From Candidatus Aenigmatarchaeota archaeon (GTDB taxonomy: Archaea > Aenigmatarchaeota > Aenigmatarchaeia > GW2011-AR5): a DNA stretch of 51,340 nucleotides. Shown here piece after piece: positions 6,101 to 18,441 of this stretch; the first letter of the stretch is position 1, and every line of letters begins with the position of its first letter. Location: assembly GCA_041645025.1 (NCBI GenBank), contig JBAZQV010000002.1, forward strand, positions 1-51,340, read 5' to 3'. The translations under genes and the position numbers were made by a program. The notes under the pieces are model-generated. The model worked only from the letters and a program-made list of their open reading frames with translations. It did no database searches and was not told the DNA's origin.

Positions 6101-7625
6101 GACTTATTCATTGAAAATTATCATCAAGGGCACAATAGTAGGCCCGGGCGTGATTAAAAATCTCACAGAAACCAAGAACGTCATGCTTGTTATCCACACA
6201 GTAAGCAGGGAAGAATCCACAGACAGTTTGGATATTGCCAGGTCTGACCTAGAGGAAATGAAAAACTCTGGATTTCCGACAGCAAAGCTCTCCAGATATA
6301 TTGAAGAAGCTAACGTGGCATTGCACGCGCACGACTATGAGAGAGCAAAGGAACTATCGGATTTAATAAAATCAACCAAGGCCGATGCTTTCCTGGCACG
6401 CAATCTCATAGATGGAATTAAATCTAAGATATCAAAGTCTTCCATCACAGGCGCTGTTGTTCACATTAAGAGCTCTACCAGAACTGAGGAACTTATAAAT
6501 CTGGCAATGGCGGCATTCGAACGCGAGGATTATCAGACAGCGATACAGCGCATAAAGGATGCCAATTTCACACTGGCTCTGGAAAGCACCACATTTGATC
6601 CTGTTTACTTCCTTATGACTTACTGGTGGGCAATGGCGCTCAGCGCCATGTTTGCGCTGCTCTTCATGATTTTTGCATACCGCCATCATGTCAAGGCCAC
6701 GATAACCCAGGACATATTGAATCTTGCAAAGGAAGAAAATAACATCCTGCACCTTATGAAGATAACCCAGAAGAAACACTTCACCAGAGGCGGTGTAAAA
6801 GCGTTCAGGAAAACCATGGAGCAATATGAGAAACGGCTGGCGGAAATAAGGCAGACAAGAATAAAATTAAGGCACAGAAGACTGCATCTGCTCAAGCCAG
6901 GAGCAATCATAGTGGATCTTCAGAAGGAAAGCGAGGAAGTCATGGAGCTGATGAAGAAAACCCAGCAAAAGTATTTTGTCAGCGTGAAAATGAGCAGGAA
7001 AACTTATCTTGAAAACATGAATCTTTTCAATGGAAGGCTAGCTGAAATCGAGGACGAAAAGATAACAGCAGAAACCCTTTTAGCTGTAAGGGGCGAAACA
7101 CCTTTCAAGCATGAATTCGGTAACATAATTCCTTTGCTGTCAAAACTCAGGCTGTCGCTGTTGCATAAACTCAAAACTGATTCATCAGTGAAAACTTCTG
7201 GTAAACACCCTAAAACTCAACCTCAGTTAAAGTCTTCACTTCACACTATGCTGAAAATACGTTTCAATATGCCGAAAGTAAATCTATCCAATATACATGT
7301 TAATATTCCAAAGGTACACATCAAAATCCCTAAAATGCATGTCAATATTCCAAAAATAAATCTACCTAAGATGAACGTCGTGAAGAGCGATATACGTAAA
7401 CTAGAAAATGAAGCCAAACATATTGAATATGCAAAAGGCGCCGCGCCTCTGGAGCCAAGACTAAATCCTGTGATGCTTAAGGCGACCAGCGTGCCGCGCC
7501 AGTATGATTACGTGCGAGCGGTTAGCTGGGTTCACCATAAAGACCCAGATGCCATAAAGATGTCAGAAAATATTTTGAATTTCAAAAACAGGGTTCGGAG
7601 GATGTTCAAATGGTTAAAAAAATAA
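129..7625 (+). CDS. Giant (2498 aa) surface protein: N-terminal signal/anchor helix, Asn-X-Ser/Thr-rich tandem Ig-like ectodomain, Gly-rich linker, helical stalk, C-terminal TM helix, basic coiled-coil cytoplasmic tail
   Basis: Uninterrupted 7.5 kb ORF with GAGGTG 11-16 nt upstream of the ATG. N-terminal hydrophobic segment FIVASSTIFLLLAVVIFAL. Dozens of NxS/T sequons. Internal ~283 aa repeats. PGGGGGGSGGS linker. TM helix VYFLMTYWWAMALSAMFALLFMIFAY, followed by a Lys/Arg-rich tail. Confidence 0.85.
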   Translation: MKGKTTFIVASSTIFLLLAVVIFALNFGDPSPDVGTPDNGTLVNSTAGYNYVDGNFTNTQADDNVYFTDGRDNPGGVGNELEAFINLTYNITPINLQAGQILQLIFNISYCQTRDVTSPSTCGGNSAQGTANTMDAEIYNWSSGAYIGIGNIADNNDETIATFFVNRSFSDFVSNGLINIRYEANYTLGNGQDAVLSIDYAPLTVKFDNITPVVTLNLPANGLNTTANNITANFTFTDNNATSACSLIINNAINQTNTLTQNNTITNFNISNLGHGYYNWSVNCTDIANTGTSSVRSFFVNRTPTIGSINSTPNPIKGGNIIIITASAPNDPNNDTLNFYCDATSAPTAANTDCTGGTTIDTTPPYSLSCTFATAATDTSNLVYCRVYDSESYSTARNTTYTTDSTSPTTTVANVANDSTLPYADKLNDGSTNITVNGETSMSCRSSASDIAYSSMTNDCTISGSQALCQITTVTQGSYNYYVSCQDSLGNEQNSTTNLDVAFTLDYTAPTTTDNFSSDIQTLGYNVTITEADNIDGDPTTLYCTSSENCSPSTSIDTGGKVQFNSRGTYYLRYNSTDYAGNQQTTVSRTIIINQLPTFTSVSGTSGTVKGGSTINVTTVSSSADSNQNITLFVCKTSSANYTGCVTTYCAVNATGNATCTFAAESDDTTHTWYAFIFDQSNESAVANPRSGSYTTDSTGPTISILSPTNSTYTQNNITATVTLSEAASNVSYSLDGAANVSMASISPTTWTIDLTGLSDSSHTLVFYANDTSGNNAAQKNVSFTVNTIPADTTSPSITVISPVNNTYLTSTSVLLNISLNENGTWAGYIIDGGNLTILANTSNRNWNATLTVAQGSRNITFFANDTSNNRGNTTISFFVDASAPAYSNVNVAPNPANQSQTVTCSAFWTDTFNITSASVEENATGVFENHTVTITGSSGWTNYTIVGTKLSSVGSYRCNFYVTDIAGNSNSTGASFTVQDLITPTITITSPTNTSYSQNDMALQIVSSEPLLTAYYCLDTCVSNTTMTNTSTTLWQASPTIASGAHTIKFYGNDTSNNIGNATISFTIDTTLGDTTPPTITIHSPVNNTYLTSTTALLNISLNENGSWAGYIIDGNSLANLGNISNRNWNITLTGLANGVQHNVTFFANDSSANKNTGNASVIFFVDVSAPRFSSVAAGPNPANETQTVTCSAFWTDTFNITSATVEENVTGSFVNHSVIINTATGWTNYTTVSLTKGSYRCNFYTTDAAGNSNSTGASFTVRDLIVPTITITNPLNTTYNTRTLDLNIVTSENITAANYSLDGTWGNLTGTGIFWSVTLSNVADGSHMLIVFGNDTSNNNGNSSVVFTVNTAVPDVTGPTLTIRSPINGTYYNASSVVLNITSNEDLLWSGYSINGTTVQNLGNTTQKIWNITKILSDGVYNITFYANDTSNNPGNTSDNVVYFFVDTTAPRNSSIGFMPLSPNDTSTITCFSTWTDNIGLSVGFVEHNISGTFVNSTNTTLGATRGDVNFTFVANSSTPGRVGCRFYVYDNAGFVNVTSFVTMSVTDTTVPFLENITYAPNTTAMLDPGVVNITVNVIDNRAVGSAVLNYRLANETNYTSVAMTSAGGTGYNGSVTLTAGNWTFFINATDTSSNVNSTVLTNLSVFLDQTWTNSTTISAVKTMTISQRISNMTLGNITINNTGDFDLNFTITSTASGNRVTFNGTTNTTLLLNVSYTNSSTFSVEVNTTDLATGVYSYSINITAQRNGAFVSSEILNFSIVIQNVAGPYLSTTIDTFSSSVSKGAAGITYLARVQNLGTADATGVWLAWTLPSEFTLTSGTLNRTIGALPVGASATNTITISVNTSISDVNTTINATAMGIDSSSSHSKAVTIGNPVTVTQTVTTVIPGGGGGGSGGSAASVVEKLLLGEEILSSNETFELVRGYNDSFPIRVKNIFEKTTIYNVSLLIDGYLSRYITISPSFASEIKYNKTKDFVATIVSPEYMDKGTYSLKIIIKGTIVGPGVIKNLTETKNVMLVIHTVSREESTDSLDIARSDLEEMKNSGFPTAKLSRYIEEANVALHAHDYERAKELSDLIKSTKADAFLARNLIDGIKSKISKSSITGAVVHIKSSTRTEELINLAMAAFEREDYQTAIQRIKDANFTLALESTTFDPVYFLMTYWWAMALSAMFALLFMIFAYRHHVKATITQDILNLAKEENNILHLMKITQKKHFTRGGVKAFRKTMEQYEKRLAEIRQTRIKLRHRRLHLLKPGAIIVDLQKESEEVMELMKKTQQKYFVSVKMSRKTYLENMNLFNGRLAEIEDEKITAETLLAVRGETPFKHEFGNIIPLLSKLRLSLLHKLKTDSSVKTSGKHPKTQPQLKSSLHTMLKIRFNMPKVNLSNIHVNIPKVHIKIPKMHVNIPKINLPKMNVVKSDIRKLENEAKHIEYAKGAAPLEPRLNPVMLKATSVPRQYDYVRAVSWVHHKDPDAIKMSENILNFKNRVRRMFKWLKK
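2502..5040 (+). repeat. Three tandem super-repeats of ~846-849 nt (282-283 aa, each about three Ig-like modules) inside the giant gene
   Basis: Units start at 2502, 3351 and 4197 (D-T-T-[ST]-P.. / SP[VI]N.TY.. / LN[IS]S.NE..W.GY.I[DN]G). Units 1 and 2 share long identical peptide stretches (SPVNNTYLTST..LLNISLNENG.WAGYIIDG; VTCSAFWTDTFNITSA.VEEN; GSYRCNFY..D.AGNSNSTGASFTV). Unit 3 is more diverged. Confidence 0.75.
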
Positions 7626-8488
7626 TTTTTATTCTGTTTTTGCTGACGATGCTGGTTTCACTGGGTCAGGCAGCTTCTAGAACTGATGCCCTCCTGGCGA
7701 TAAACCAGTCGCAGAACGATATGAATGACATGCTGGAGACAGGGTTTTCTGCAAGCTCTGTCAACGATACCATAGGCGCCATGCGCCAGGCTCTTGAACG
7801 GGCGGACTTTGCTGAAATGTTGCGGCAGAATACAACCGGCGCCCTGGCGCAGCAGGCGAGGAAGGCTCTGGAGGGGCTGAACTACGAGGGATTTACCTAT
7901 GACAGTGTCGTGGCATACGGCAATCAGACAGCAGCAAGAAAGCAAAAGGCGCTTGAGCTGTACGACTCCATACGGGCTTTGGAAATCAGGATTGGTGACA
8001 CTTTTGGATTGAATCTGTCAGATGTGGTGGCACTTGTTGGTCAGGCGAAAGAAGAGTTCCAGAAAGAGCGCTATGACCAGGCGGAGCAGTATTTGTCCAG
8101 TGCCAATACGGTTCTGGAAACCAAAAAAGCAGAGGCAACGACTCTTTCAGCAATGATGGAGGCTGGCAGAAGCTTCATTGAAAGATACTGGCAGGGATTG
8201 CTTGGACTTGTAATACTTATTGTAGCTTTTTCATGGTTTGGAGGAAAAAAATACCAGAAAAACAACTTAAAGAAAAAAATAAGGCGGATGAAGGCGGAAA
8301 AAATTACACTAAATCATTTAATGAAAGAAACCCAGCGGGAGCGCTTTGAAACAGGAAAACTTTCCGGGCCCATTTACGAGATACGCATGGACAAATACAA
8401 TAAGCGGATCAATGAGATTGACCAGAAACTGCCGGTGCTCGAAGCCATGCTGAAGGGAAAGAAGATTGAAGAGAAGGGACAAAAATAA
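7610..8488 (+). CDS. Membrane protein (292 aa) paralogous to the C-terminal stalk/TM/tail module of the upstream giant protein
   Basis: Overlaps the giant gene by 16 nt. Signal peptide IFILFLLTMLVSLGQAAS, helical ectodomain, TM helix GLLGLVILIVAFSWFGG. Cytoplasmic LNHLMKETQRERFETGKLSGPIYEIRMDKYNKRINEI matches the two tail repeats of the giant protein. Confidence 0.8.
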   Translation: MVKKIIFILFLLTMLVSLGQAASRTDALLAINQSQNDMNDMLETGFSASSVNDTIGAMRQALERADFAEMLRQNTTGALAQQARKALEGLNYEGFTYDSVVAYGNQTAARKQKALELYDSIRALEIRIGDTFGLNLSDVVALVGQAKEEFQKERYDQAEQYLSSANTVLETKKAEATTLSAMMEAGRSFIERYWQGLLGLVILIVAFSWFGGKKYQKNNLKKKIRRMKAEKITLNHLMKETQRERFETGKLSGPIYEIRMDKYNKRINEIDQKLPVLEAMLKGKKIEEKGQK

Positions 8489-8499
8489 AATTTATTTAG

Positions 8500-9180
8500 T
8501 ACGGGCGCCGCAAGAACCCCTTGCCCACTTTAGTGGGCGGATGAATTGCTCATAAACTTCAAAGCGCCCGTCAGACTGGTTCTTGAATTATAAAAAATAA
8601 ATAAAAACAGGAAGCGACTTCCTGTTAGCAGAAACTTCAATTACTCATAGGATTCGCTTCCTTAAAAAACATTTTTGGAGGCGATTCCATGATAGAATTA
8701 ATCAAAGCTAGCCACAGTGTTACGGAAACTAATTTGCACCTGCAATTCACGCCTGCTTTCAGGCAGGACGTATTCGAGGACGAGACGACACGAGTTCTCG
8801 TCCGAGACTACATGCTTGCGCAATCCAGACGCAAGAGTTTCGAGATATCTGCATTTGGTTTCGGCAACGACCACTTGCACGTATTTGTCTCGAAATGGAA
8901 AAACTTCGCGCCAGCGAAGCTTGCGCAGCTTCTCAAGGGCTACACATCACGTATGATGCGCAAGCATCATATGGATTTGTTCGAGGACAATCTTTGGGGA
9001 GACATGTTCTGGTCAGGCGGATATTTCGCAAGGACAGTCGGCGCAGTGAACGCAGAAACCGTGAGAAAGTATGTGACGGAATCGCAGAAATACAGCTATG
9101 CAGGAAGCGAACTGCCAAAGCAGAGAAAACTCATAGGATTTGCATCATAAGACGCCAGCCACTTTAGTGGCTGGTAGTTC
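8500..9180 (+). mobile_element. IS200/IS605-family element carrying tnpA only; ends are approximate
   Basis: A Y1 HUH transposase gene is flanked by subterminal hairpins with the same ACTTTAGT apex: GCCCAC-TTTA-GTGGGC at 8523-8538 and CCAGCCAC-TTTA-GTGGCTGG at 9155-9174. No tnpB-like ORF is present. Confidence 0.6.
8689..9150 (+). CDS. tnpA: IS200-type Y1 (HUH) transposase TnpA, 153 aa
   Basis: HUH motif in GNDHLHVFVS. C-terminal catalytic Tyr context ETVRKYVTESQKYSY. Size is typical of the family. GGAGG lies 7 nt upstream of the ATG. Confidence 0.85.
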   Translation: MIELIKASHSVTETNLHLQFTPAFRQDVFEDETTRVLVRDYMLAQSRRKSFEISAFGFGNDHLHVFVSKWKNFAPAKLAQLLKGYTSRMMRKHHMDLFEDNLWGDMFWSGGYFARTVGAVNAETVRKYVTESQKYSYAGSELPKQRKLIGFAS

Positions 9181-9240
9181 ACAATCAGTTCTTCGGACCT
9201 CATTTTTAGGATTTATAAAGACTATACTGATCAGTTTAAT

Positions 9241-10386
9241 ATGAGGCTGAATCTCAAAAATCCGTCAGAAGTGAAGGTGTCTCTCTTATCTCATGGCATC
9301 AATTGTGTTGCTGATATGTTCGCTAACTTTGATAGAGATTTCTATTGGAATCGTTATGTATACGGAAATACGAGCACGGCGGAAAAACATCACAGATTTC
9401 CACAAGTGCTTTTACTCGGTAACGGCGTAGTTTCGGCGTTTCTGCGAAGAGGGGGAACCCCGTGGGCATTGAAAAATGAAGGCAACAACGCTGTCGGTCT
9501 GTATCATGAAGGAACGTACGTACAGGATGTTGGTCTACCAGAAACACCTGCGTATTATGGAAAACGATTATCGGACGGCTCACTATCGGACAATGTGATC
9601 GCTGTGGCGGGGGAACAAACACCTGGATTTTTTCTCTATCCGGAATGCTATTATTTCAACGAGGGGTCATTTTGCAAATTTTGTTCATTAAAACCAACGC
9701 GAAGAACGGTTGCTGAAGAACTCGAAGCTGAATTCGAAAATGCTAGAATATCAGAGGCTACTAGGTTATTTCAGAATACTTCCTGGAGAGATATACCACT
9801 CGTTTCTATAACTGCCGGAACAGCCAGAACAGACTTAGGAACGCAGAGAGGAATCATTGATAGAATTAGGGCTGTTTACGATGCCTTAGATCCAAAAATC
9901 CCAATTCACACCCTTGTTCACCCGCCGCATGACTTTGACTTGATAGACGAATACAGGGACGCAGGAGTAACATCCATTGCATTTAATATCGAAGTTTATG
10001 ACAGAAGCGTTTTCGCTAGGGTTGCCCCAGGAAAAAATAAAGATTATGGTTATGACAAATGGATGGATGCAGTCCGACATGCGCGCGACGTATTTGGCGA
10101 TTATAATGCATTCTGCGGACTGGTATGGGGACTAGAGCCTGCAGAGAATGTAAAAAGAGCGCATCGTGAATATCTGGATCAGGGAATAGGCATTACATCT
10201 AATATCTTTCACAGTGATCCAAGGACGCCTATGAGACAGCATCCACACCCATCGGAAGAGTATATAATGGATATTGCCGAAGATCAGGCAAACCTATACG
10301 ATGCGTATCCTAATGCGCGTACTATTTTTTCCGTGAGTATGAGAAGTACAATCGACTGGGAAATCCATCGTGGTGATTATCGATGA
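9241..10386 (+). CDS. Radical SAM-like enzyme (381 aa) with an atypical C-x8-C-x2-C cluster motif and an N-terminal ~130 aa extension
   Basis: PECYYFNEGSFCKFCSL replaces the canonical CX3CX2C. TIM-barrel-like downstream motifs are present (SITAGTAR, SIAFNIEVYDRSVFARVAPGK, CGLVWGLEP). The stop overlaps the next gene (ATGA). Confidence 0.5.
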   Translation: MRLNLKNPSEVKVSLLSHGINCVADMFANFDRDFYWNRYVYGNTSTAEKHHRFPQVLLLGNGVVSAFLRRGGTPWALKNEGNNAVGLYHEGTYVQDVGLPETPAYYGKRLSDGSLSDNVIAVAGEQTPGFFLYPECYYFNEGSFCKFCSLKPTRRTVAEELEAEFENARISEATRLFQNTSWRDIPLVSITAGTARTDLGTQRGIIDRIRAVYDALDPKIPIHTLVHPPHDFDLIDEYRDAGVTSIAFNIEVYDRSVFARVAPGKNKDYGYDKWMDAVRHARDVFGDYNAFCGLVWGLEPAENVKRAHREYLDQGIGITSNIFHSDPRTPMRQHPHPSEEYIMDIAEDQANLYDAYPNARTIFSVSMRSTIDWEIHRGDYR

Positions 10387-11537
10387 AATTTTATGTTGAT
10401 TGCGTGGGCTGTGAACAAAGACAGCTCGATGCACAGCGAATAATTAACTATCTTAATGAAAACGGTCATGAACAGAGTAGTTCTCCAAGCGCAGCAGACT
10501 ACACTGTACTTGTTACTTGTGCCGTCAATAGATCGGCGGAAAGAGCCTCCTTGAAGAGGGTATCGGAACTGTCAGGAGAAGCTTCAAAACCGGAGAATCT
10601 TATTATCAGCGGATGTCTTCCAGACATTAGTCCCGATCAGTTAGGAGCTTACGGCACTTTTCCTGTGGTTTCTCCAAAACGACTAGAGAATTTTGATGTT
10701 TTACTGGAACCTTACGTTACAGTTCCTATGAGCGACATTGCATACCCAAATTCTTCCATTTTCGATACACGACAAGACCCAATTGGATTGCTCAACGAAC
10801 TCTCGCCTCGCGATGAATACGATTTGGCGAAAAATGGGTACAAGATTCGCGTCAACAATGGCTGTCTGATGGACTGCTCGTATTGTGTTATCAAGGATGC
10901 AATGGGGAGAGTTGTTTCCGTCCCTTTCGATGAACTTGTCCGTCAGTTTGAAGCTGCAGCCGTTAGAAAAGAACCTACCATTATGTTCATGGGTGGCGAT
11001 ACGGGGGCTTACGGCTATGATCTTGATTCGGTGGTGAGATTTTATACACTACTCGAAAGGACTCTTGGTGTTCAGGGTGATCACCGTGTATTTGTGCACG
11101 ACTTCAACGCAAACTGGTATTTGCGCAACGCAGATGATTACGACGCTATTTTCGCAAATAACGAGAATCGTGGCAGGTTAAGAGGCGTCATGATTCCAGT
11201 TCAATCCGGCAGCGACAAAATCCTCAAGCTCATGAAACGCCCATACAAAGCAAAAGACGTTTCCGAACGCCTTGGAAGAATAAAAAGAGAATACCCGTCA
11301 CTTCATTTAGGGACTCATATCATAACTGGGTTTCCTTCGGAAACGCAGGAAGATTTTGACCTGACATTAAACCTGCTTGATCGCGTAGGCTTTGATTTCA
11401 TGAGTGTCTTTGTATATTCTGAACACAAAAGAGCTAAATCATCTCCATTAGAAGAAAAAATAGACCCGGAGATTGCAAAAAACAGGGCGTTGCATATAGC
11501 TGACCGATTTGGTGAGTTGGCAAAGGTGTTTGAATAA
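10383..11537 (+). CDS. MiaB/RimO-family radical SAM methylthiotransferase lacking a C-terminal TRAM domain (384 aa)
   Basis: N-terminal MTTase domain has three conserved Cys (VDCVGCEQ, VLVTCAVNRSAE, IISGCLPD). Radical SAM motif NNGCLMDCSYCVI. Family signatures PVQSGSDKILKLMKRPY and IITGFPSETQEDFDLTL. The protein ends ~60 aa short of where a TRAM domain would lie. Confidence 0.8.
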   Translation: MKFYVDCVGCEQRQLDAQRIINYLNENGHEQSSSPSAADYTVLVTCAVNRSAERASLKRVSELSGEASKPENLIISGCLPDISPDQLGAYGTFPVVSPKRLENFDVLLEPYVTVPMSDIAYPNSSIFDTRQDPIGLLNELSPRDEYDLAKNGYKIRVNNGCLMDCSYCVIKDAMGRVVSVPFDELVRQFEAAAVRKEPTIMFMGGDTGAYGYDLDSVVRFYTLLERTLGVQGDHRVFVHDFNANWYLRNADDYDAIFANNENRGRLRGVMIPVQSGSDKILKLMKRPYKAKDVSERLGRIKREYPSLHLGTHIITGFPSETQEDFDLTLNLLDRVGFDFMSVFVYSEHKRAKSSPLEEKIDPEIAKNRALHIADRFGELAKVFE

Positions 11538-11539
11538 TT

Positions 11540-12418
11540 ATGGCACAACTATCCATTGACGATAATTTCAGCGCGTATCATGGAAGCTTTGATATCCGTA
11601 GAGATACGTACGCTGTTGCCGTGTGCGTCGAAGGAAGCATTGTTAACGGATTTGTACGCGGCTTAGACTCGACGTCATTGCGTTGCGCGCTTTCATCAGT
11701 TACATCCGCCCTAGAAGACAGATATCTGGACGATGTTGTTGGAAGGGCTACAAACGAACATATAGGACTTTACATATTACATCAACTTTTGTTGCATCCT
11801 TTATCTCTTGTAAGAATCGTCGGAGACGGACATGGTATTGAAGTATACCCAACAGATATTAGCGCTAATTATCCGACCCGATTGTTGTACGAGCGAGCTC
11901 GAAGCCTGCTATATAGAGACAAACCTGCTGAAGCAATTAAAATTGTATCACAATCCATAGATTCAGACAACACGTTTGCACCAGCTTATAATCTACGCGG
12001 GAGATGTCACAGGACGACAGGACAATGGCACGCTGCCCTACCTGATTTTGAAAAAGCTATAAGTCTCGATCCAAACTTCGGAGAAGCCTATCGAAATGCC
12101 GGAAATGCGCTATACTACCTTGGTAGAACCGACGAGATGATAGACGCCTTTACAAAAGCAGTCGAGTTAATGCCGACGTCTGCTTTGGCAATTAATAACA
12201 GGGGATTTGCCCACCAACGATTACAGGAGTGGGAGCTAGCCTTAGCCGACCATACTAGGGCACTCGAACTTGACTATAATTATGCTGAAGCGCATACCGA
12301 CATGGCAGCAGCATTGAAGGCATTGGGGAGAGCGGAAGAGGCGATAGAATACGAAAGCTTAGCGCAAGAATTACATGTAACGGGGAGAGATACGTATGCG
12401 ACGAAATTATTTTACTGA
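11540..12418 (+). CDS. Fusion protein: N-terminal QueD/PTPS-like (T-fold-like, probably degenerate) domain plus C-terminal TPR repeats (292 aa)
   Basis: At least four TPR units are clear (AYNLRGRCHRTTGQWHAALPDFEKAISLDPNF, GEAYRNAGNALYYLGRTDEMIDAFTKAVELMP, ..NNRGFAHQRLQEWELALADHTRALELDYNY, AEAHTDMAAALKALGRAEEAIEY). The N-terminal part (FSAYHG..YAVAVCVEGSIVNGFV..LDDVVGRATNEHIGLYILHQL..VRIVGDGHGIEVY) follows the PTPS/QueD pattern by eye, but the HGH metal motif is absent. Confidence 0.55.
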   Translation: MAQLSIDDNFSAYHGSFDIRRDTYAVAVCVEGSIVNGFVRGLDSTSLRCALSSVTSALEDRYLDDVVGRATNEHIGLYILHQLLLHPLSLVRIVGDGHGIEVYPTDISANYPTRLLYERARSLLYRDKPAEAIKIVSQSIDSDNTFAPAYNLRGRCHRTTGQWHAALPDFEKAISLDPNFGEAYRNAGNALYYLGRTDEMIDAFTKAVELMPTSALAINNRGFAHQRLQEWELALADHTRALELDYNYAEAHTDMAAALKALGRAEEAIEYESLAQELHVTGRDTYATKLFY

Positions 12419-12426
12419 GGTGTAAT

Positions 12427-13389
12427 ATGGCAAAGTTACACTATGGCATTGCAGCATATAACGAGGAAAGTCGGATTGGAGAGTGCCTTGAATCGCTGGC
12501 CGTCCAGGAAATTGATGGAACACAAGTTGAGACGATTGTATGTCTGAACGGATGCAATGATAATACAGGAGTTGTAGTTAGAGAGGCTCAGAAGCGATAT
12601 CCTAAGCTGAATATTAGAATCTCTCATAGCAAGAAAGGAAAAGTTTTCGCACATAATGAAATTGTTAGACAAACAGAAGATGACGGAGAGCCTGTCGCTT
12701 TTGTTGATGGCGATGTACGGCTTGATAGCAAAGCTATCAACATTCTCTACAGAGAATTGCAGGAAGTGGATAGTCTACAAGCCGTCGGCGGTCTGCCAGT
12801 TCCATACCGCCCTTCTGATTTATCGCTGTGGGAATCCTTTCTTTATGAAGTTCTTCATGCGCGTGCACTCTTTCCCCAGTCGGAAGTATCTACTCATGAT
12901 GTAAGTAGCTATAAACCATTTGCAGATACAAAACCACAATCTGGCATCGACCCTAATTTCGAAAAACGATCCAAGATTTATTTTCATGGAAGATTATTCA
13001 TGCTCCGTAATAAAGGAGTTTTTCAGATGCCAGAAGACGGAAATCTGGCCGACGACAGTTTCTTGCCTAACATGATACACACAAAATACGGTCCGGGGTC
13101 TTCACGAACATGCTATGGCGCAATTGCCTATTACGAACCCTACCTTTCACTTCGCGATCATTTCAATGCATACCGAAGAGTTCATGCGCAGCTTCGTTAT
13201 CTGGACCGTCATTTCGAAGAGTTTACACAATCGCGAGAAATGGAACAGACAAAATTAGATTGGGATTACATCCGATCAACGGGTTTGGCAAACGTCGCCC
13301 GTTTTGCTGTATACTCACTGATAAGAAGAACAGAGAATGCGTTGTACCGCCTCCTGCCAGAACTGCCGCCCACAGAACTGTGGAAATAG
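12427..13389 (+). CDS. Family 2 (GT-A) glycosyltransferase, 320 aa
   Basis: N-terminal YGIAAYNEESRIGECLESLAVQ..ETIVCLNGCNDNT and DxD-like VDGDV. Confidence 0.75.
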   Translation: MAKLHYGIAAYNEESRIGECLESLAVQEIDGTQVETIVCLNGCNDNTGVVVREAQKRYPKLNIRISHSKKGKVFAHNEIVRQTEDDGEPVAFVDGDVRLDSKAINILYRELQEVDSLQAVGGLPVPYRPSDLSLWESFLYEVLHARALFPQSEVSTHDVSSYKPFADTKPQSGIDPNFEKRSKIYFHGRLFMLRNKGVFQMPEDGNLADDSFLPNMIHTKYGPGSSRTCYGAIAYYEPYLSLRDHFNAYRRVHAQLRYLDRHFEEFTQSREMEQTKLDWDYIRSTGLANVARFAVYSLIRRTENALYRLLPELPPTELWK

Positions 13390-13422
13390 CAATTCTTAAA
13401 CATTTTATTCTATGAATATTAC

Positions 13423-13914
13423 ATGACTTACTACATTATTATCCGAGGTCCTGCAGCTAGCGGCAAGTCCACGATAGCAAGAAGATTAGCTAAGGAACTA
13501 AATGCTTATAGTATTCATCTAGATTCTGTTCTCGCCAAGCATAAGCTCGACAAGATTAAACGCGGTGGCATCAGCACGGAAAATTTCATTAAAGGAAACG
13601 CTCTGATTATAGACAAGATAAATAAAAGATTAGAAAGGGGTCAGATAGTTATTATAGATGCATGCTTTTATCGTAAGAGACATCTAGATGATTTGGTTAA
13701 GAATCTTCCACATAAGCATCTTATTTTTTCATTGAAGGCGTCAGTGGAAGAATGTATAAGAAGAAATAAATCACGCACTAGCGGAATGACCGAAAAAGAT
13801 ATACGTGATGTCTTTGCTCTTGTTTCTAGACTAAAGACAGAATTGTACATCGACACAGAAGGTAAAGTTATCAATGAAATTATTTCAGAAATGAAGAGAC
13901 ACCTTCCGCACTAA
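13423..13914 (+). CDS. Small P-loop kinase/ATPase (163 aa); paralog of 49933..50430
   Basis: Walker A IIIRGPAASGKSTIARRLA. Shares IDACFYRKRHLDDLVKNLPHKHLIFSLKASVEECIRRNKSR with the second copy (FDGCFYHKTQIIHLTKNLPYHHFIFTLKANVEECIRRDVKR). Confidence 0.7.
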   Translation: MTYYIIIRGPAASGKSTIARRLAKELNAYSIHLDSVLAKHKLDKIKRGGISTENFIKGNALIIDKINKRLERGQIVIIDACFYRKRHLDDLVKNLPHKHLIFSLKASVEECIRRNKSRTSGMTEKDIRDVFALVSRLKTELYIDTEGKVINEIISEMKRHLPH

Positions 13915-14102
13915 CCAGAGAGTACAACATGCGCAATAGATGCCCAATCAGGGCAATGAATAACATTCGTTTTTTACGACTGTCCACACTTTCCCGCAAG
14001 ATAAAGTCTTCCATGATAAGTTCCCATGTAATCAGAAAGTTTTTCATTATCGTCAACAAGACCTTCGACTGATAGATAAAGAAACTCTAAGAAATCACTT
14101 AT

Positions 14103-15749
14103 CTAGAACTCGTTCATGCGATTCTTTAATATAGCAGCCGCCTTCTCGCAGCCGATGGCACAGATGAATTGGGCGAGGCGCGGGCCGCGCAGGCTGTTCA
14201 GCAGAAGAACATAGGTTGCTTCGAAGAATTTTCCCATTTCCAAGCCGTCTTCTTTTGGTATGGCGTACAGGCGCGCATAAAGCTCTTCTTCTTCCCAGTC
14301 TTTGTTTTCAAGTTCGTAGATAAGTTTCTTTATGGATTTTTTCTGTTCATCACTGAGAGCATAGACTATCTTTTCTTCAGGCACGGTGTCGTTTATCCAA
14401 TTTGTGACATAGCTTATGCGGGCAGTCAGCTCTTCTTTATCCATTTCATTTAGCTGCTGGGGCACGTGACCTGTTCTTTTTAATATGGACTTGACAACAT
14501 CCTGATTTTTTGCTATGCGCATAAGATTGGCAAGCATGTTGTATTGCACAATTACTTTGCTCTCGCTCGGCGTTTCAAGGAAATTCACAAATTCAAACAG
14601 CCGCTTCTGGTGTTCAAGTTCTTTTTGGTTTGCTGTTTTCACTTTTCCAACTCGAGAAAGGCTTTGATCTTTCTGAGTCCCTGAAAAGCCTTGCTTTTCA
14701 CGAAAATAAATTTTTTCCAGCTCGTCAACCTCATCCATGTAAGCTGGTATGGCGTCAGGATCGACAACCCTGCTTGTACCTAGGCGCTTCAGGAACAGCA
14801 GCCGCAGGCTCAGTGGTGATGCGTATTTCATCCATCTTGCCGGCGTGAAGACGTTGCCGGCGCTTTTTGAGATTTTTTTGCCTGATCGCTCTGTGAATAA
14901 TTCGTAGAAAGAATGGATGGGTGGTTCCCAACTGAATATTTCCTTACTGATGCGGTCGTTGCATCTTACACTGTCAAGTATGTCTTTTCCAAAAGCCTCA
15001 TAATTAATATTGAGCGCAGCCCATCTTGCGGCGAACTCCACTTTCCATGCCAGCTTGCCGTCGCGCAGGCCGCAGACTCCATCATGGCCGCAGCCTTTCA
15101 CCTCAATGATTTTTCCGGTGTTGCTGTTCTTTCCCTCAAAAGTTTGATCACACTTGTAGTGGATTTCCCCGTCAGCGAACCGATAGGCGCGGGTTGTGTA
15201 GATTTTGCCGCATTTTTCGCACACAGCCATATAGGGCAGCTGTGCAATGTATTTATCCTGTCCTGTAACCTCGCGTATTATTTCGCCGCAGCGCTTCGCA
15301 TTTTTCAACGCGATAATTATCTGCTTGTCAAGAGTGCCTTTTGCATATTCTTCATGGGCGCGTAGCAACCGGAATTGAACGCCTAAGCGGTCGAAAGCGT
15401 CTGTGAGCAGCTGGCCAATGTGCAGTGCCATGTTTTTGTGGCAGCCGAATGGGTCGTCTATTGCAGATACAGGTTTGCCTATTTCACTCTCGGCGACGGG
15501 AAACCCTACAGGAACCTTTCTTAATCCGTCCCTGTCATCGCTAAAGGCAATAAACTCGCTTTTTACGCCTAATTCTTTCAAAGCCAGGTTAACTACAAAG
15601 GAGCGTATGCCATCACCAGTTGAACCTACATGGGGGATGCCGCTGGCACCAAGACCCATTTCTGTTCTGAACTTTGATACCCTGTTGAGCTTCTGTTCCC
15701 TGTCGACAATTTCCTTTGCAACTTGGTCTGCCCAAAAATTTGATGACAT
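14103..15749 (-). CDS. lysS: Class I lysyl-tRNA synthetase (archaeal type), 548 aa
   Basis: HIGH-type motif GIPHVGSTGD, KMSKS-type motif GKKISKSAGN, Zn-knuckle-like CEKCGK..CGHDGVC. Length is typical of LysRS-I. Confidence 0.9.
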   Translation of the reverse strand: MSSNFWADQVAKEIVDREQKLNRVSKFRTEMGLGASGIPHVGSTGDGIRSFVVNLALKELGVKSEFIAFSDDRDGLRKVPVGFPVAESEIGKPVSAIDDPFGCHKNMALHIGQLLTDAFDRLGVQFRLLRAHEEYAKGTLDKQIIIALKNAKRCGEIIREVTGQDKYIAQLPYMAVCEKCGKIYTTRAYRFADGEIHYKCDQTFEGKNSNTGKIIEVKGCGHDGVCGLRDGKLAWKVEFAARWAALNINYEAFGKDILDSVRCNDRISKEIFSWEPPIHSFYELFTERSGKKISKSAGNVFTPARWMKYASPLSLRLLFLKRLGTSRVVDPDAIPAYMDEVDELEKIYFREKQGFSGTQKDQSLSRVGKVKTANQKELEHQKRLFEFVNFLETPSESKVIVQYNMLANLMRIAKNQDVVKSILKRTGHVPQQLNEMDKEELTARISYVTNWINDTVPEEKIVYALSDEQKKSIKKLIYELENKDWEEEELYARLYAIPKEDGLEMGKFFEATYVLLLNSLRGPRLAQFICAIGCEKAAAILKNRMNEF

Positions 15750-15753
15750 GATA

Positions 15754-16143
15754 TCACTTCACAAACTCAACATTATTCATGCTTTTGAATTCTTTGTCCC
15801 CTGTCAGGAATTTAACATTATTTTCAATAGACATTATGTACCCGAGGTAATCTACATAGCTAAGATTCTTGCTCCTGTTTAAAAACCTGAATTTTGCAGC
15901 ATTTTTTATCGTCTCCTCATTGTACGATATTGCAAAATTGAGGAATATTTTGTAGTAAACCTCTGCCACACGTTCGTTGTAGTTAAGCAGCAGGGCATAA
16001 TAAAGCTCCAACAGGTTGAGCATGGAAGTTAGCTTGTTAGCGTTCTTGTATTTTTCATAATTGCTATTGCCTTTTATGAGTTCAATTAATGCGTAAGTAT
16101 CAAAGAAGAAAGTTTTAGTCATTCCAAAGCTCCTTGTCAACAA
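15754..16143 (-). CDS. vapC: PIN-domain toxin (VapC-like), 129 aa
   Basis: N-terminal acidic motif FFFDTYALIEL and C-terminal YVDYLGYIMSIENNVKFLTGDKEF. Overlaps the upstream AbrB-type gene. Confidence 0.75.
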   Translation of the reverse strand: MLTRSFGMTKTFFFDTYALIELIKGNSNYEKYKNANKLTSMLNLLELYYALLLNYNERVAEVYYKIFLNFAISYNEETIKNAAKFRFLNRSKNLSYVDYLGYIMSIENNVKFLTGDKEFKSMNNVEFVK

Positions 16144-16342
16144 CTTTCAATATTCTGCTTGTTGGTTTCTTCCAGTCTTTGAGAGAGCCGAATACCTTAT
16201 TCATGTTAATCTTTGAAGGCTTTCTCAGTATTATCTCAACTTTTTGCCCATCCTTTAGATTCTCTTTTCTTATTATTTCGTTTGGTATTATCACACCAAA
16301 GGAGTTGCCCCACTTCTTTATCCTTCCCTCAAGCTCAGACAT
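16115..16342 (-). CDS. vapB: AbrB/MazE-fold antitoxin (VapB-like), 75 aa, start trimmed to the internal ATG
   Basis: MSELEGRIKKWGNSFGVIIPNEIIRKENLKDGQKVEIIL is a SpoVT/AbrB swapped-hairpin motif. The 48 codons upstream in the ORF track are low-complexity (FFYYFFVYLNYF) and lie in the divergent promoter region. Confidence 0.7.
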   Translation of the reverse strand: MSELEGRIKKWGNSFGVIIPNEIIRKENLKDGQKVEIILRKPSKINMNKVFGSLKDWKKPTSRILKVVDKELWND

Positions 16343-16393
16343 ATTATCACCAGTTATACAATGTATAACTAAGTATATAAAGTTGTTTGACAA

Positions 16394-16777
16394 ATGATTA
16401 ATCTTATGGCCGAAATAAAATACTTGACAAAGGAGGAAATAGTTAAGATACACGAAGAAATAATAGAAAAATTTGGAGGTACGCAAGGTCTGTTAAATGA
16501 AGGCTTACTTGATTTGGTTTTAGATCAGATGAGAATTTCTAAAGATATTATCCAGAAGTCTATTATACTTCTTTTTGGTATTATTCAAGATCACCCGTTT
16601 TTGGATGGAAATAAGAGAACCGCACTGGAAAGCTTCTATACCTTCCTCAATTACAACTCTATTAACCTTGAAATAAAAGATATAAATGAAACAGAGTCTA
16701 TAATACTTAAGATAGCAAAGAATGAAATAAGCAGAAATATTGTCAGGAAATGGATAGAAAGTTTAATTTGTGATTAA
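16394..16777 (+). CDS. doc: Fic/Doc-family toxin (death-on-curing type), 127 aa
   Basis: Doc signature IIQDHPFLDGNKRTALESF. Size is typical. Transcribed divergently from vapBC. Confidence 0.8.
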   Translation: MINLMAEIKYLTKEEIVKIHEEIIEKFGGTQGLLNEGLLDLVLDQMRISKDIIQKSIILLFGIIQDHPFLDGNKRTALESFYTFLNYNSINLEIKDINETESIILKIAKNEISRNIVRKWIESLICD

Positions 16778-16778
16778 C

Positions 16779-16862
16779 ATGGTAAGAAAAAACGTAATGA
16801 AAATAGCAAGAACTGGTATGAAAAAACACAAGGACCTTCTCATTAGGCTTGCGAAGAAGTGA
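16779..16862 (+). CDS. Possible 27-aa basic peptide immediately downstream of doc
   Basis: The ATG lies 1 nt after the doc stop. Product MVRKNVMKIARTGMKKHKDLLIRLAKK. No other support. Confidence 0.15.
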   Translation: MVRKNVMKIARTGMKKHKDLLIRLAKK

Positions 16863-16910
16863 AGCCTCTCTAAACGAAGCTTTTATTAACCCTTCCTCCA
16901 AGTTATACAG

Positions 16911-18146
16911 ATGAAACGTTTTCCAATAGATTCTTTGGTGGCAGGAATAATTCTCACGGTGCTTCTGTCTTTCGTATTATCGGCGGATATTGCGCTGTTC
17001 GCAGGTTTCATAGCAGTCATAGCTTTGTTGATATACGGCGACCGCAGAAATGTGAAGCGCGAGGGCATTATCGTCATAAGAAGAACCCAGCGGGGCAGGA
17101 ATTTTATAGACCATGTAGCGAAATCACACAAATGGTTCTGGCGCAAGCTTTCTGTTGTCGGTATTGTTGTTGCAATCATACTGATGTTTGTCGGTTCGCT
17201 GGTGCTCATAACCCAGGCACATGCTGTGATAGAAGGTGCAAAAGACGGCGGCGTCAAGCTCCTTTTACCTGGCCCTGTCGCAGCACCGGTAAATGCGCCG
17301 GGTGTTTTTGTTGTGCCGTGGTGGATATGGGTTATCGGCATAGCTGTCGTGATAGTACCTCATGAGTTCATGCACGGCATCATGTGCCGCATTGACGGCG
17401 TAAGGATAAAATCCGTTGGCTGGCTTCTGCTTATTATAATACCAGGTGCTTTTGTCGAGCCAGACGAGGCCCAGCTGAAAAAGAAAAGCCGGATGACAAA
17501 GCTTAGAGTATACGCAGCCGGCTCCTTTGCAAATATGATTGTTGCTGCTATCGTTCTTGTTATCGCGCTGGTTGTGACGCTGGCGATTTTCTCATCAGGC
17601 GTAGCTGTTCCATATGGCGTGAACTTCGCAGGCACGCTGAACGGCACGCCTGCTTACGCTGCTAATATGACAGGCTCAATAATCCTACTTAATGGCATAG
17701 AAATCAGGAATCAAACAAGTCTCAGCAATGCACTGGAAAAATACAAGGCCGGCGACACTGTTGAGGTTGTAACAGCGGATACTTATTTCATTAGCGGCAT
17801 CCTGCCTTCCGGCATAGTTGATAAGATCAAGCTTCATCAATACAATCTTACACTAGCTAGCCATCCGGAAAAAACTGGCGCGTTTCTTGGCATAGCGGGC
17901 GTAAGCCAATCCATAGTTCTTAACATGAACATGAATGCCTATGCTACAGTCTCTGTGCTGCTTTTGTGGATTTTCCTGTTCTCGTTTGGAATCGGTCTTG
18001 TAAACCTACTTCCAATAAAGCCGCTGGACGGCGGGCTTATATTAGAGGAGCTGGTCGGCGGAAGAAAACGGGTTGTCAAAGTGATTTCAGTGGCGATGCT
18101 GCTTCTGCTTTTGTTCAATCTGATCGGGCCGCTGTTTCTAGTGTAA
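16911..18146 (+). CDS. Site-2 protease (M50 family) with an internal PDZ-like domain, 411 aa
   Basis: HEFMHG (HExxH) lies in a TM segment. NLLPIKPLDGG (NxxPxxxLDG). Multiple TM helices. Confidence 0.85.
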   Translation: MKRFPIDSLVAGIILTVLLSFVLSADIALFAGFIAVIALLIYGDRRNVKREGIIVIRRTQRGRNFIDHVAKSHKWFWRKLSVVGIVVAIILMFVGSLVLITQAHAVIEGAKDGGVKLLLPGPVAAPVNAPGVFVVPWWIWVIGIAVVIVPHEFMHGIMCRIDGVRIKSVGWLLLIIIPGAFVEPDEAQLKKKSRMTKLRVYAAGSFANMIVAAIVLVIALVVTLAIFSSGVAVPYGVNFAGTLNGTPAYAANMTGSIILLNGIEIRNQTSLSNALEKYKAGDTVEVVTADTYFISGILPSGIVDKIKLHQYNLTLASHPEKTGAFLGIAGVSQSIVLNMNMNAYATVSVLLLWIFLFSFGIGLVNLLPIKPLDGGLILEELVGGRKRVVKVISVAMLLLLLFNLIGPLFLV

Positions 18147-18200
18147 GGAAAATCTTTATATATCCTTACTTTCAATAAATAAGTAAGGAGATGGTTTATC

Positions 18201-18440
18201 ATGTCAGAGGAAGGAACTATAACGAGCAAGGGACAATTGACGATACCGAAGGAAATAAGAGACCACTTTGGCTGGAAAGACGGCGAGAAAATAATATTTT
18301 TGGAAAGAGAAGGCGAACTCGCAATAAAGCCGAAAATAAAAGACCCCGTAAAAAAGCTCCACGAATTAAGGAAACAAATACGATTCAGCGAAAAGGAGAT
18401 AGACAGCATGATTAAGGAAAGCAAGAAGGCATGGGATTAG
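18201..18440 (+). CDS. vapB: AbrB/SpoVT-type antitoxin, 79 aa
   Basis: KGQLTIPKEIRDHFGWKDGEKIIF motif. Ends 1 nt before the PIN gene. Confidence 0.75.
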   Translation: MSEEGTITSKGQLTIPKEIRDHFGWKDGEKIIFLEREGELAIKPKIKDPVKKLHELRKQIRFSEKEIDSMIKESKKAWD

Positions 18441-18441
18441 G

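Follow-up and report, generated by a model that had tools for sequence, protein, structure and literature searches.

Which product do five tightly packed genes make when they combine two radical-SAM proteins, a T-fold-TPR fusion, a glycosyltransferase and a kinase next to a transposable element in the genome of a tiny, symbiotic aenigmatarchaeon? In the window (the whole analyzed stretch of 51,340 nucleotides), g1 to g5 all lie on the plus strand, and the spacings of -4 (an ATGA overlap), 2, 8 and 33 nt given in the original prediction, which was made from the DNA letters alone, are reproduced. Upstream lies an IS200-type element (8500..9185, plus strand), whose TnpA gene (8689-9150; PF01797, 1.1e-24, and NF033573, 4e-27, in profile searches) is framed by a left hairpin at about 8520-8541 and a right hairpin at 9154-9175, with cores CCCACTTTAGTGGG at 8524 and GCCACTTTAGTGGC at 9158. 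The operon indeed begins beside the right hairpin, which lies 65 nt (previously 60 nt) before the g1 ATG. A candidate archaeal TATA box read from the sequence, TTTATAAA (9212..9219, plus strand), may serve g1; it lies 22 nt 5' of the ATG. At the other end, the operon faces, as described before, a lysyl-tRNA synthetase gene, the convergent class I lysK (14103-15749).

The operon is not an orphan, as it had been called. Collinear g1-g2-g3 genes plus a GT2 gene, often with one gene's stop codon overlapping the start of the next, recur in about 20 loci of several phyla: Aenigm-, Woese-, Micr- and Nanoarchaeota and Heimdallarchaeia (DPANN and Asgard), as well as contigs from bacterial MAGs binned as Alphaproteobacteria, Bacillota and Bacteroidales. 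The proposed gene-neighborhood comparison thus finds the genes tightly linked in many other genomes. The conserved unit consists of four genes, g1, g2, g3 and the GT2 gene; of the five-gene unit proposed earlier, these four stand, while the kinase is a satellite whose homologue adjoins the cassette in 11 of the ~20 loci, in variable orientation. A kinase and a HAD phosphatase are frequent companions, and the kinase is not obligatory.

The cassette is accessory and mobile. A 5.6-kb block (8500..14103) comprising the IS200 element, the cassette and a HAD remnant is missing from this site in the closest relative, G002, as blastn reveals, so the suggested island test is positive: window positions 7600-8499 align to 13801-14700, and positions 14104-15737 to 14698-16271, of the G002 locus L032. 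These flanks are contiguous in L032, and therefore a 292-aa gene directly abuts lysK in G002. The family profile of g1, NF045502, is found in 9 of 301 genomes of the phylum (~3%) and g1 itself in two or three of the 11 genomes of the genus; a deletion remnant of the cassette persists in G006, and transposase or integrase genes stand beside it in three to four further loci (L039, L040, L042 and the P0107 locus). In a sequence search, the cassette sequence was found only in the source groundwater metagenome.

The first gene, g1 (9241..10386, plus strand), encodes a variant radical-SAM enzyme. It already belongs to a curated, though uncharacterized, NCBIfam family, NF045502 ('variant_rSAM'; 307.7 bits against a cut-off of 125). 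The same profile set reports a distant relative, TIGR04043 (72.9 bits), the MSMEG_0568 radical-SAM protein of the Nit1C nitrilase cluster; no member of either family has a known reaction, and the Nit1C context (nitrilase, GNAT and AIR-synthase-like genes) is missing around g1. The Cx8CxxC motif noted in place of CX3CX2C is present as C136-x8-C145-x2-C148 and invariant in 19 homologues, as is a fourth cysteine, C292. Such CX8CX2C variants have been catalogued (PMC9477430), and RadicalSAM.org megaclusters 4-6-x share the motif with g1. The N-terminal extension, put at 130 aa, measures ~125-130 residues before the radical-SAM core and forms a beta-rich domain, one helix followed by five strands, in the AlphaFold2 model (pLDDT 89.7). 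A PDB sequence search finds no relative of g1, and Foldseek places LipA (5exi, E=2e-8) on top, followed by PylB, BioB and HydG/E, so that the proposed radical-SAM barrel is borne out by the model. These enzymes superpose on the barrel with TM-scores of ~0.45-0.6 at only 10-20% identity; g1 differs from them in the extra N-terminal domain of ~125 aa and in the cysteine spacing, and it has no auxiliary-cluster Cys triad, only the one further invariant Cys. One source names some homologues bacteriochlorophyllide c C-7(1)-hydroxylase (BciD), a name that no NCBIfam family match of g1 supports.

The second radical-SAM protein, g2 (10383..11537, plus strand), is a MiaB/RimO-type methylthiotransferase homologue with two domains, UPF0004 (PF00919) and radical SAM (PF04055). 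The family signatures reported for it hold: the cysteines of both Fe-S triads, C10/C46/C78 and C161/C165/C168, never vary among 15 homologues. The reported lack of TRAM holds as well. Against TIGR00089, g2 scores 225 bits, under the cut-off of 251, and coverage ends at model position 356 (from 1) of 429; therefore, the TRAM part is missing. The g2 clade is discrete, made of 375-385 aa proteins, and TRAM (PF01938) occurs in none of its ~70 members. With MiaB, MtaB and RimO, g2 shares the UPF0004 domain, three invariant Cys for the auxiliary [4Fe-4S] cluster, the CxxxCxxC radical-SAM domain and the QSGS...LK.M.R motif, features that predict the same two-step -SCH3 transfer. The only known substrates of that family are tRNA (A37) and Asp88 of S12 (PMC10702137). 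By contrast to these enzymes, which carry a C-terminal TRAM, the entire g2 clade lacks it, and g2 is encoded within a glycosyltransferase operon that is accessory and mobile. Among PDB entries, RimO matches g2 best (4jc0, 2.7e-35), and this genome has no further methylthiotransferase gene.

The third gene, g3 (11540-12418, plus strand), was described as a T-fold without HGH fused to TPR repeats, and profile, Pfam, model and alignment agree. In a profile search with its N-terminal domain (11540..11881), the PTPS/QueD homologue PH0634 (2dj6) scores E=3.6e-10 and structures of QueD/PTPS ~1e-5; PF01242 matches 9 of 13 family members; and the AlphaFold2 model (pLDDT 95) has a beta-beta-alpha-alpha-beta-beta topology, identical to that of QueD/PTPS, followed by TPR helices. 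In an alignment with canonical QueD, g3 still has the first His and, within TxEN, the Glu (E73); HGH, which holds two of the three zinc histidines, is gone, along with the Cys loop and catalytic His. The domain is a true PTPS/QueD T-fold devoid of the zinc site and catalytic Cys, losses that exclude QueD/PTPS chemistry. The C-terminal domain (11882..12418) consists of about five TPR repeats (TPR_1, 3.4e-24), modeled as paired helices at residues 111 to 281; its best Foldseek matches are a consensus TPR, the OGT TPR domain and MamA. As in the QueD-QueE pair, the T-fold is partnered with radical-SAM enzymes, and one cassette variant (L039) even includes a QueE-like gene, the product of which lacks the cluster cysteines. 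Unlike in that pathway, g1 is not a QueE; FolE, QueC and TGT genes are not linked to the cassette; and the T-fold is joined to TPR and, in some genomes, to glycosyltransferases. It is fused to GT2 in L014 (627 aa) and to GT1/UDPGT in P0262 (742 aa), so two unrelated glycosyltransferase folds have been joined to the T-fold-TPR module. Two Micrarchaeota loci have no T-fold, which is therefore not essential to the core chemistry.

The two remaining genes match their earlier descriptions. g4 (12427..13389, plus strand) is a GT2 (GT-A) glycosyltransferase (PF00535, 1.6e-13) with an invariant DxD motif, D94/D96; solved GT2 structures are only weakly similar (5tze, 4e-4), as are SunS-family S-glycosyltransferases (8e-4). 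Cassettes without g4 have a second type of GT2 instead, and the g1 tree divides in line with the two types. g5 (13423..13914, plus strand) is a small P-loop kinase (AAA_33, PF13671, 1.1e-14; KTI12/PSTK/NMP-kinase-like), with weak matches to the tRNA-associated kinases PSTK and KTI12; members of its family are found in cassette-free genomes too, and a 53% identical paralogue is present at 49933-50430 (minus strand). Beyond g5, tblastn uncovers the last 56 codons of a HAD-type phosphatase gene (13923..14090, minus strand), 55% identical to residues 170-225 of an L007 HAD-like protein (E=3e-13). Intact members of this family have DxD(D/E)T and DDN motifs, and a HAD phosphatase accompanies the cassette in at least nine loci; here, the phosphatase has been lost and only the remnant is left.

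The cassette context consists of sugar and nucleotide metabolism genes. Cassettes lie near genes for an iolG-like GFO/IDH/MocA oxidoreductase, a class III aminotransferase and IMPase-family phosphatases, and some near a PIG-L deacetylase together with GT4 and GT1; a g2-like protein fused to a TylF-type methyltransferase lies beside a UDP-glucose-dehydrogenase-GT2 fusion. Sister clusters in bacteria (Burkholderia, Nostoc, Kibdelosporangium, Kitasatospora and Pyxidicoccus) place g1 beside a GT2 and an HGPRT-like phosphoribosyltransferase, an enzyme type also present in the toyocamycin pathway; a Bacillota variant cluster has HAD, Fe-ADH, PfkB kinase, GT2, ABC exporter and NUDIX genes. Kinases of three unrelated families (P-loop, APH and PfkB) recur beside g1 and GT2, which points to a required phosphorylation step. 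A resemblance to radical-SAM sugar and nucleoside antibiotic clusters of the aminoglycoside, blasticidin and pactamycin types is apparent in the glycosyltransferase, radical-SAM, kinase/phosphatase, oxidoreductase, aminotransferase and deacetylase genes that likewise recur around g1. However, none of their enzymes BtrN, AprD4 and BlsE is close to g1 (AprD4 and BlsE are distant structural matches only), and here the cassette resides in ~1 Mb genomes of DPANN archaea. To our knowledge, a methylthiotransferase and a dead QueD-TPR protein have not been described together in one cluster.

Together, these features suggest, with about even confidence, a horizontally mobile biosynthetic cassette for a low-molecular-weight S-methylated glycoside rather than for modification of tRNA or a ribosomal protein. 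The original prediction proposed thiomethylation plus glycosylation or phosphorylation of a small molecule, modified base or peptide, and the gene context favors a small molecule or base over tRNA and peptide targets: the product is most likely a small metabolite that is methylthiolated, glycosylated and transiently phosphorylated, a tRNA or S12 target being less likely. Judging from family membership, g1 would convert the sugar or aglycone by way of a 5'-deoxyadenosyl radical, g2 would place -SCH3 onto an unactivated carbon via its auxiliary cluster, and the GT2 would glycosylate the acceptor with an NDP-sugar as donor. g3, in which the Glu that anchors the ligand in pterin- and purine-binding T-folds persists but the catalytic metal site does not, may be the acceptor-binding or scaffolding subunit of the glycosyltransferase. 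A phosphate put on by the P-loop kinase and taken off by the HAD phosphatase (lost here) would serve activation, self-protection or 'cryptic' phosphorylation. As acceptor, a purine- or pterin-like (nucleoside-type) compound, or else a sugar or cyclitol, is most likely; the context genes are divided on this, those of sugar type indicating one acceptor and those of nucleotide type another. Counting against such a glycoside are the two loci without a T-fold and the small biosynthetic capacity of DPANN archaea.

The TPR repeats raise another possibility, since the usual partners of TPR domains are proteins or peptides. The g3 repeats could recruit such a target for OGT- or SunS-like glycosylation by GT2, RimO-like beta-methylthiolation of a side chain by g2 and a further radical modification by g1. 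This is possible but unlikely. The TPR-glycosyltransferase architecture, adjacent here and fused in L014 and P0262, recalls the TPR superhelix coupled to a glycosyltransferase in OGT/SPINDLY, the OGT TPR domain is among the best structural matches of g3, and both the closeness of g2 to the protein-acting RimO and the weak SunS match of g4 fit. Yet the OGT/SPINDLY catalytic domain is GT41, not GT2, a T-fold precedes the repeats only in g3, and this purine-/pterin-type fold has no obvious part in protein recognition. No plausible target gene accompanies the cassette, whose context is one of sugar and nucleotide enzymes, and the N-terminal domain of g1 is not RRE-like. In agreement with the original reading, no precursor-peptide gene is evident: no small ORF is conserved within 3 kb of 15 cassette loci, and the recurring ones are antisense shadows of larger genes.

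A cell-surface glycoconjugate or lipid-linked glycan (an S-layer glycan, membrane glycolipid or teichoic-acid-like polymer) is quite unlikely to be what is modified instead of a soluble metabolite. GT2 is universal in cassette loci, and the additional GT4, GT1 and PIG-L genes and the ABC-2-type transporter/membrane protein genes near some clusters would fit a surface glycopolymer too; however, no flippase or oligosaccharyltransferase gene is linked, no membrane domain is predicted in the family matches of g4 or the other core proteins, and partners such as the kinase, HAD phosphatase, phosphoribosyltransferase, NUDIX protein and PfkB typically belong to soluble sugar and nucleotide chemistry. 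The cassette comes shortly after giant surface protein genes here, but owes this position to insertion.

The same insertion, not present in the closest relative, accounts for the adjacency to lysK, which might otherwise hint at a nucleoside of tRNA or another RNA that carries a methylthio group plus a sugar or phosphate, e.g., a 7-deazapurine or an ms2A-type hypermodification. The known substrates of the g2 family, its sole representation in the genome by g2 and the kinase's weak resemblance to PSTK and KTI12 agree with such a target, which is nonetheless very unlikely: neither TRAM nor another RNA-binding domain is found in any g2 clade member or in g1, g3 and g4, and the cassette is rare, mobile and decaying in relatives, unlike core translation functions. 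While the QueD-like fold and the one QueE-like neighbor recall archaeosine/queuosine chemistry, both proteins have lost catalytic metal ligands, and a tRNA-guanine transglycosylase-type gene is not linked. That the five genes are unrelated, juxtaposed by chance or partly not real is refuted by the identical order of overlapping or near-abutting frames in ~20 independent loci of distant phyla and by the g1 tree, with invariant catalytic residues and confident structure models leaving this a negligible chance.

The small S-methylated glycoside would thus come from a cassette that is widely shared yet unstudied and, if this reading is true, a small-molecule substrate would be of a new kind for methylthiotransferases.

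The cassette comprises five plus-strand ORFs (g1, 9241-10386; g2, 10383-11537; g3, 11540-12418; g4, 12427-13389; g5, 13423-13914), laid out as in the original prediction with spacings of -4, 2, 8 and 33 nt, and its end faces a convergent lysyl-tRNA synthetase gene, of the class I type, immediately downstream (lysK, 14103-15749). Its core consists of four genes, g1 to g4, with catalytic residues intact and a dead QueD-like fold in g3. A TTTATAAA box, read from the sequence 22 nt 5' of the g1 ATG, may be a candidate archaeal promoter; no Rfam model for a riboswitch or other structured RNA matches at E<=0.1 across 7500-16500 of the window.

The designation of these genes as an "orphan operon" does not survive a neighbourhood search, and the chance juxtaposition that had been considered is not seen, since the linkage recurs in other genomes. 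Scanning a single genome per species for the gene pattern, and then running tblastn, recovers collinear g1-g2-g3-g4 in many loci, on contigs labelled Aenigmatarchaeota, Woesearchaeota, Micrarchaeota and Nanoarchaeota and on contigs binned as Alphaproteobacteria, Bacillota and Bacteroidales; further homologue look-ups added, among others, a Heimdallarchaeial locus and a contig with sigma-54 activator genes. Loci that lack g4 carry another GT2 gene (369 aa), upstream of g1 or downstream of g3, and are set apart in the g1 tree (support 100/99). Occasional neighbours are an iolG-like GFO/IDH/MocA oxidoreductase, a class III aminotransferase, IMPase-family phosphatases, a PIG-L deacetylase together with GT4 and GT1 genes, and a QueE-like protein devoid of cluster cysteines. 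A literature search for this gene combination found no paper. As had been noted for the window, no precursor-peptide ORF accompanies the cassette: none is conserved within 3 kb of 15 cassette loci, and a RiPP cluster was rejected, the recurring 18-90-aa ORFs in these flanks being only antisense shadows of larger genes. A known anti-phage defence system was likewise dismissed, PADLOC giving no match for g1 to g4 and only weak P-loop matches for g5.

g1 scores 307.7 bits on the NCBIfam model NF045502, 'variant_rSAM' (cut-off 125), and passes Pfam PF04055 marginally (30.2 bits, threshold 29.5). A sequence search of the PDB detected no solved structure for it; its AlphaFold2 model (pLDDT 89.7) superposes in Foldseek on lipoyl synthase, PylB, biotin synthase, HydG/HydE and ThiH, and the best 40 matches are all radical-SAM enzymes. 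g1 therefore models as a radical-SAM barrel, and the family models agree on the barrel core; a beta-rich domain of ~125 residues precedes it. The canonical CX3CX2C cluster motif is replaced by C136-x8-C145-x2-C148, these three cysteines and C292 being invariant in an alignment of 19 homologues. The CX8CX2C spacing is catalogued for uncharacterised radical-SAM megaclusters (PMC9477430), which makes it plausible that the variant motif is functionally equivalent to the canonical one.

Two possible links of g1 to named systems were set aside. The radical-SAM family of the Nit1C cluster (TIGR04043; 72.9 bits against a cut-off of 303.7) is a distant family relative only, and the Nit1C literature does not bear on the cassette; BciD, proposed as a characterised relative, owes that name to a single source, has no such match in NCBIfam and yielded no motif data in the literature search. 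A second, distant subfamily above the NF045502 cut-off (145-167 bits) occurs in the same phylum (G023:C26, G026:C4, G051:C20 and G190:C4) and is ~25% identical to g1 where compared (G023 and G026).

g2 combines a UPF0004 domain (PF00919, 1.1e-15), with the auxiliary-cluster cysteines C10, C46 and C78, and a radical-SAM domain (PF04055, 2.8e-17) with a canonical CX3CX2C motif, C161-x3-C165-x2-C168; both triads are invariant across 15 homologues. Methylthiotransferases have a three-domain architecture with a C-terminal TRAM domain (PMC10702137). The original prediction, that g2 bears the MiaB/RimO signatures and stops short of TRAM, holds: the protein ends at position 356 of 429 of TIGR00089, scoring 225 bits against the curated cut-off of 251, and PF01938 (TRAM) was not found in any of ~70 members of the g2 clade. 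This clade is discrete in a database search, with ~70 clusters all of 375-385 aa, after which the score falls to canonical enzymes of ~425 aa. One g2 relative is fused to a TylF-type methyltransferase and adjoins a UDP-glucose-dehydrogenase-GT2 fusion.

The predicted T-fold at the N-terminus of g3, devoid of the HGH metal site and followed by TPR repeats, is borne out by profile searches, topology and alignment. Searching the PDB with a profile of its first 115 residues gives the Pyrococcus PTPS/QueD homologue 2dj6 at 3.6e-10, with QueD/PTPS structures following at 1e-5 to 1e-3 (QueD 4ntk, 7e-5); PF01242 matches 9 of 13 family members, the window copy not being one of the nine. The model (pLDDT 95) has the beta-beta-alpha-alpha-beta-beta order of a T-fold (strands 2-14 and 20-32, helices 44-58 and 72-82, strands 90-95 and 98-102), then TPR helices. 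The T-fold call rests on the profile searches and this topology; a fold search with the whole model was discarded as T-fold evidence, TPR matches dominating it.

Alignment with 12 canonical QueD/PTPS sequences reveals what the g3 family has kept and lost. The first His (H14) and the Glu of TxEN (invariant in all 21 rows) are retained; R/K-x-D stands in place of HGH and L-x-x in place of LDH, with loss of the catalytic His, and the loop bearing the Cys is deleted. With neither the complete zinc-binding His triad nor the catalytic Cys and Asp-His of PTPS/QueD, g3 is therefore a homologue incapable of QueD/PTPS chemistry, and its T-fold most probably serves in binding. Members of the subfamily are few (51 representatives at E<=1e-10 in a set of 1.84 billion proteins), and their fusions provide the strongest functional clue: the T-fold-TPR module is joined to a GT2 domain in one Micrarchaeota chromosome (627 aa) and to a GT1/UDPGT domain in another protein (742 aa). 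That two unrelated glycosyltransferase folds are attached to one and the same module suggests that g3 acts in concert with glycosyl transfer. In two Micrarchaeota loci, the TPR part is present and the T-fold absent.

Relatives of the g3 T-fold also exist as stand-alone proteins of ~112 aa (P0278, P0285 and P0288), which retain an HxH pair and lack the Cys loop and thus look intermediate between canonical QueD and the dead domain of g3. A cassette variant, L039, encodes at 14107-14688 a QueE-like protein (TIGR04508, E=5.8e-45) that keeps QGEG and lacks the Cx14CxxC cysteines; judged by these residues, it would be a second 'dead' 7-deazapurine-pathway enzyme beside the dead QueD fold.

Matches to family models uphold the assignments of g4 as a GT2 glycosyltransferase and of g5 as a small P-loop kinase. 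g4 matches PF00535 at 51.3 bits (against 23.3), and the D94 and D96 of its DxD motif, as expected of a GT2/GT-A enzyme, are invariant in 12 homologues. g5 (163 aa) is an AAA_33-family P-loop kinase with weak, partial matches to PSTK/KTI12: on TIGR03574 it scores 47.5 bits against a cut-off of 290.5, with a match confined to the P-loop half (positions 2-131 of 249), and it lacks the C-terminal tRNA-binding domain that would place it with these proteins. The kinase is a satellite of the cassette, present in 11 of ~20 loci in varying orientation; its family also occurs in genomes that have no cassette, and the closest relative, G002, has a cassette without a kinase. The window holds a paralogue on the minus strand (49933-50430), 53% identical to g5 and adjoined by no cassette gene; the cassette-linked kinase of locus L007 is 47% identical to this copy and 41% to g5. 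A HAD-type phosphatase of 225-234 aa with DxD(D/E)T and DDN motifs is a second satellite, found at no fewer than nine loci (>=9). In the window only its last 56 codons remain (13923-14090, minus strand), abutting the lysK stop codon, and no other HAD copy exists in the genome; this cassette has thus lost its phosphatase.

The cassette is a rare, mobile accessory element. It lies in a 0.98-Mb, 88%-complete DPANN assembly, and the proposed comparison with relatives finds it absent at this site in G002, the closest relative in the collection, which is labelled Candidatus Aenigmatarchaeota. The window matches G002 up to 8499 and again from 14104, and in G002 a 292-aa gene directly abuts lysK; the 5,604 bases between the aligned flanks, which hold the IS200-type element, the cassette and the HAD remnant, are therefore an indel relative to G002. 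G002 has its own cassette on a different contig, whose g1-g4 are 80/65/57/68% similar to those of the window (flanking genes, 81-90%); the L007 cassette is closer, at 85/75/68/76%. In G006, which belongs to the same genus, all that is left of the cassette is an in-line join between residues 1-123 of g1 and residues 232-320 of g4 (locus L034, G006:C67, 6163-6789), adjoined by an intact HAD gene; it is a deletion remnant and shows that cassette loss is ongoing. NF045502 matches 9 of 301 genomes of the phylum, archaeal and bacterial members intermix in the g1 tree, and the cassettes of three loci besides the window have transposase or integrase genes as neighbours (DDE_Tnp_1 and integrase in L042, rve_3 in L039, integrase and RVT in L040); a fourth (P0107) has a resolvase gene ~5 kb upstream. 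No compositional anomaly was found (GC 43.2% vs 44.3%), and the cassette sequence itself was found in the source groundwater metagenome only.

The IS200-type element directly upstream (TnpA gene, 8689-9150; hairpins, ~8520-8541 and 9154-9175) was considered as the vehicle and rejected: the hairpin occurs only at 8524 and 9158 and is not repeated where the 5.6-kb block ends on the right, so transposition of the usual IS200 kind does not account for that block. At L007, the last 48 codons of lysK (12536-12679, 75% identical) lie beyond the HAD gene, followed by unrelated genes; this fragment may have been co-transferred with the cassette, or the locus may be rearranged. L009, on a contig binned as Bacteroidales (PLLX01000100.1; 35% GC), has a cassette 64-78% identical to that of the window and flanking ORFs with no match in the window's genome; either the contig is misbinned or the cassette has truly been transferred to a remote host. 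Just past lysK, the window carries toxin-antitoxin-like genes (PIN/VapC-like and AbrB-type ORFs, 15754-18870), and L040 has integrase, MNT-HEPN and reverse-transcriptase genes after its cassette; both surroundings resemble defence or mobile islands.

Related clusters place the core in a wider frame. A sister g1 clade, well separated in the tree, comprises Burkholderia, Paraburkholderia, Nostoc, Kibdelosporangium, Kitasatospora, Pyxidicoccus and a Deltaproteobacteria MAG; there g1 invariably precedes genes for an HGPRT/XPRT-like phosphoribosyltransferase and a GT2 of 400 aa, with a B12-binding radical-SAM protein, an APH-family kinase, a sugar epimerase/dehydratase and a carbamoyltransferase as extras in some clusters. 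In a Bacillota variant, g1 and a GT2 of the g4 type are accompanied by HAD, Fe-ADH, PfkB-kinase, ABC-exporter and NUDIX genes. What stays constant is thus the pairing of g1 with a GT2; kinases and second radical-SAM enzymes also recur across the clusters but are drawn from differing families.

That the cassette builds a small glycoside is the reading preferred here, with a probability close to even. g1 would carry out a radical transformation, g2 would add -SCH3, g3 would present the acceptor to the GT2, and kinase and phosphatase would cycle phosphate. Nucleotide-type genes (T-fold, QueE-like, HGPRT-like phosphoribosyltransferase, PfkB, NUDIX and a weakly NT5C-like HAD) point to a purine- or pterin-like acceptor, and sugar-type genes (iolG-like dehydrogenase, aminotransferase, IMPase, PIG-L and extra glycosyltransferases) to a sugar or cyclitol. 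A bolder version, tentative and on the doubtful side, takes the TRAM-less g2 clade as the first methylthiotransferases to act on a small molecule; together with g1, the dead-QueD ligand scaffold and the glycosyltransferase, they would make a new methylthio-glycoside of nucleoside or pterin type, a pathway that genome-reduced DPANN and Asgard archaea would gain horizontally and whose product, be it an antibiotic, a signal or an antiviral nucleoside analogue, they would direct at viruses, competitors or their hosts.

The known substrates of methylthiotransferases are tRNA (A37) and ribosomal protein S12 only, and an ANME-1 enzyme once thought to make methylthio-F430 turned out to be a tRNA enzyme (PMC10702137); a literature search for a small-molecule methylthiotransferase found none. 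Modification of a protein or peptide by the cassette is judged unlikely, and that of a surface glycoconjugate improbable. RNA modification, against which the absence of a TRAM domain from the g2 clade speaks, is the least credible.

The gene families of the cassette are of known kinds, and that of g1 is already curated as NF045502; neither this family nor the TRAM-less g2 clade has a member with a known reaction, and the g1 family has no solved structure. A TRAM-less clade bound into a glycosyltransferase operon offers a concrete, testable path to a third class of methylthiotransferase substrate, its partner g1 comes from a radical-SAM family whose Cx8CxxC site is non-canonical, and the four-gene core is compact enough for direct heterologous expression. 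The metal-less QueD-like T-fold, independently fused to two unrelated glycosyltransferase folds, may exemplify how an enzyme becomes a module that presents substrate. The DPANN archaea that host the cassette have genomes of ~1 Mb and encode few biosynthetic pathways, and a mobile specialised-metabolite cassette in such organisms would inform the interplay of these symbionts with their hosts and viruses.
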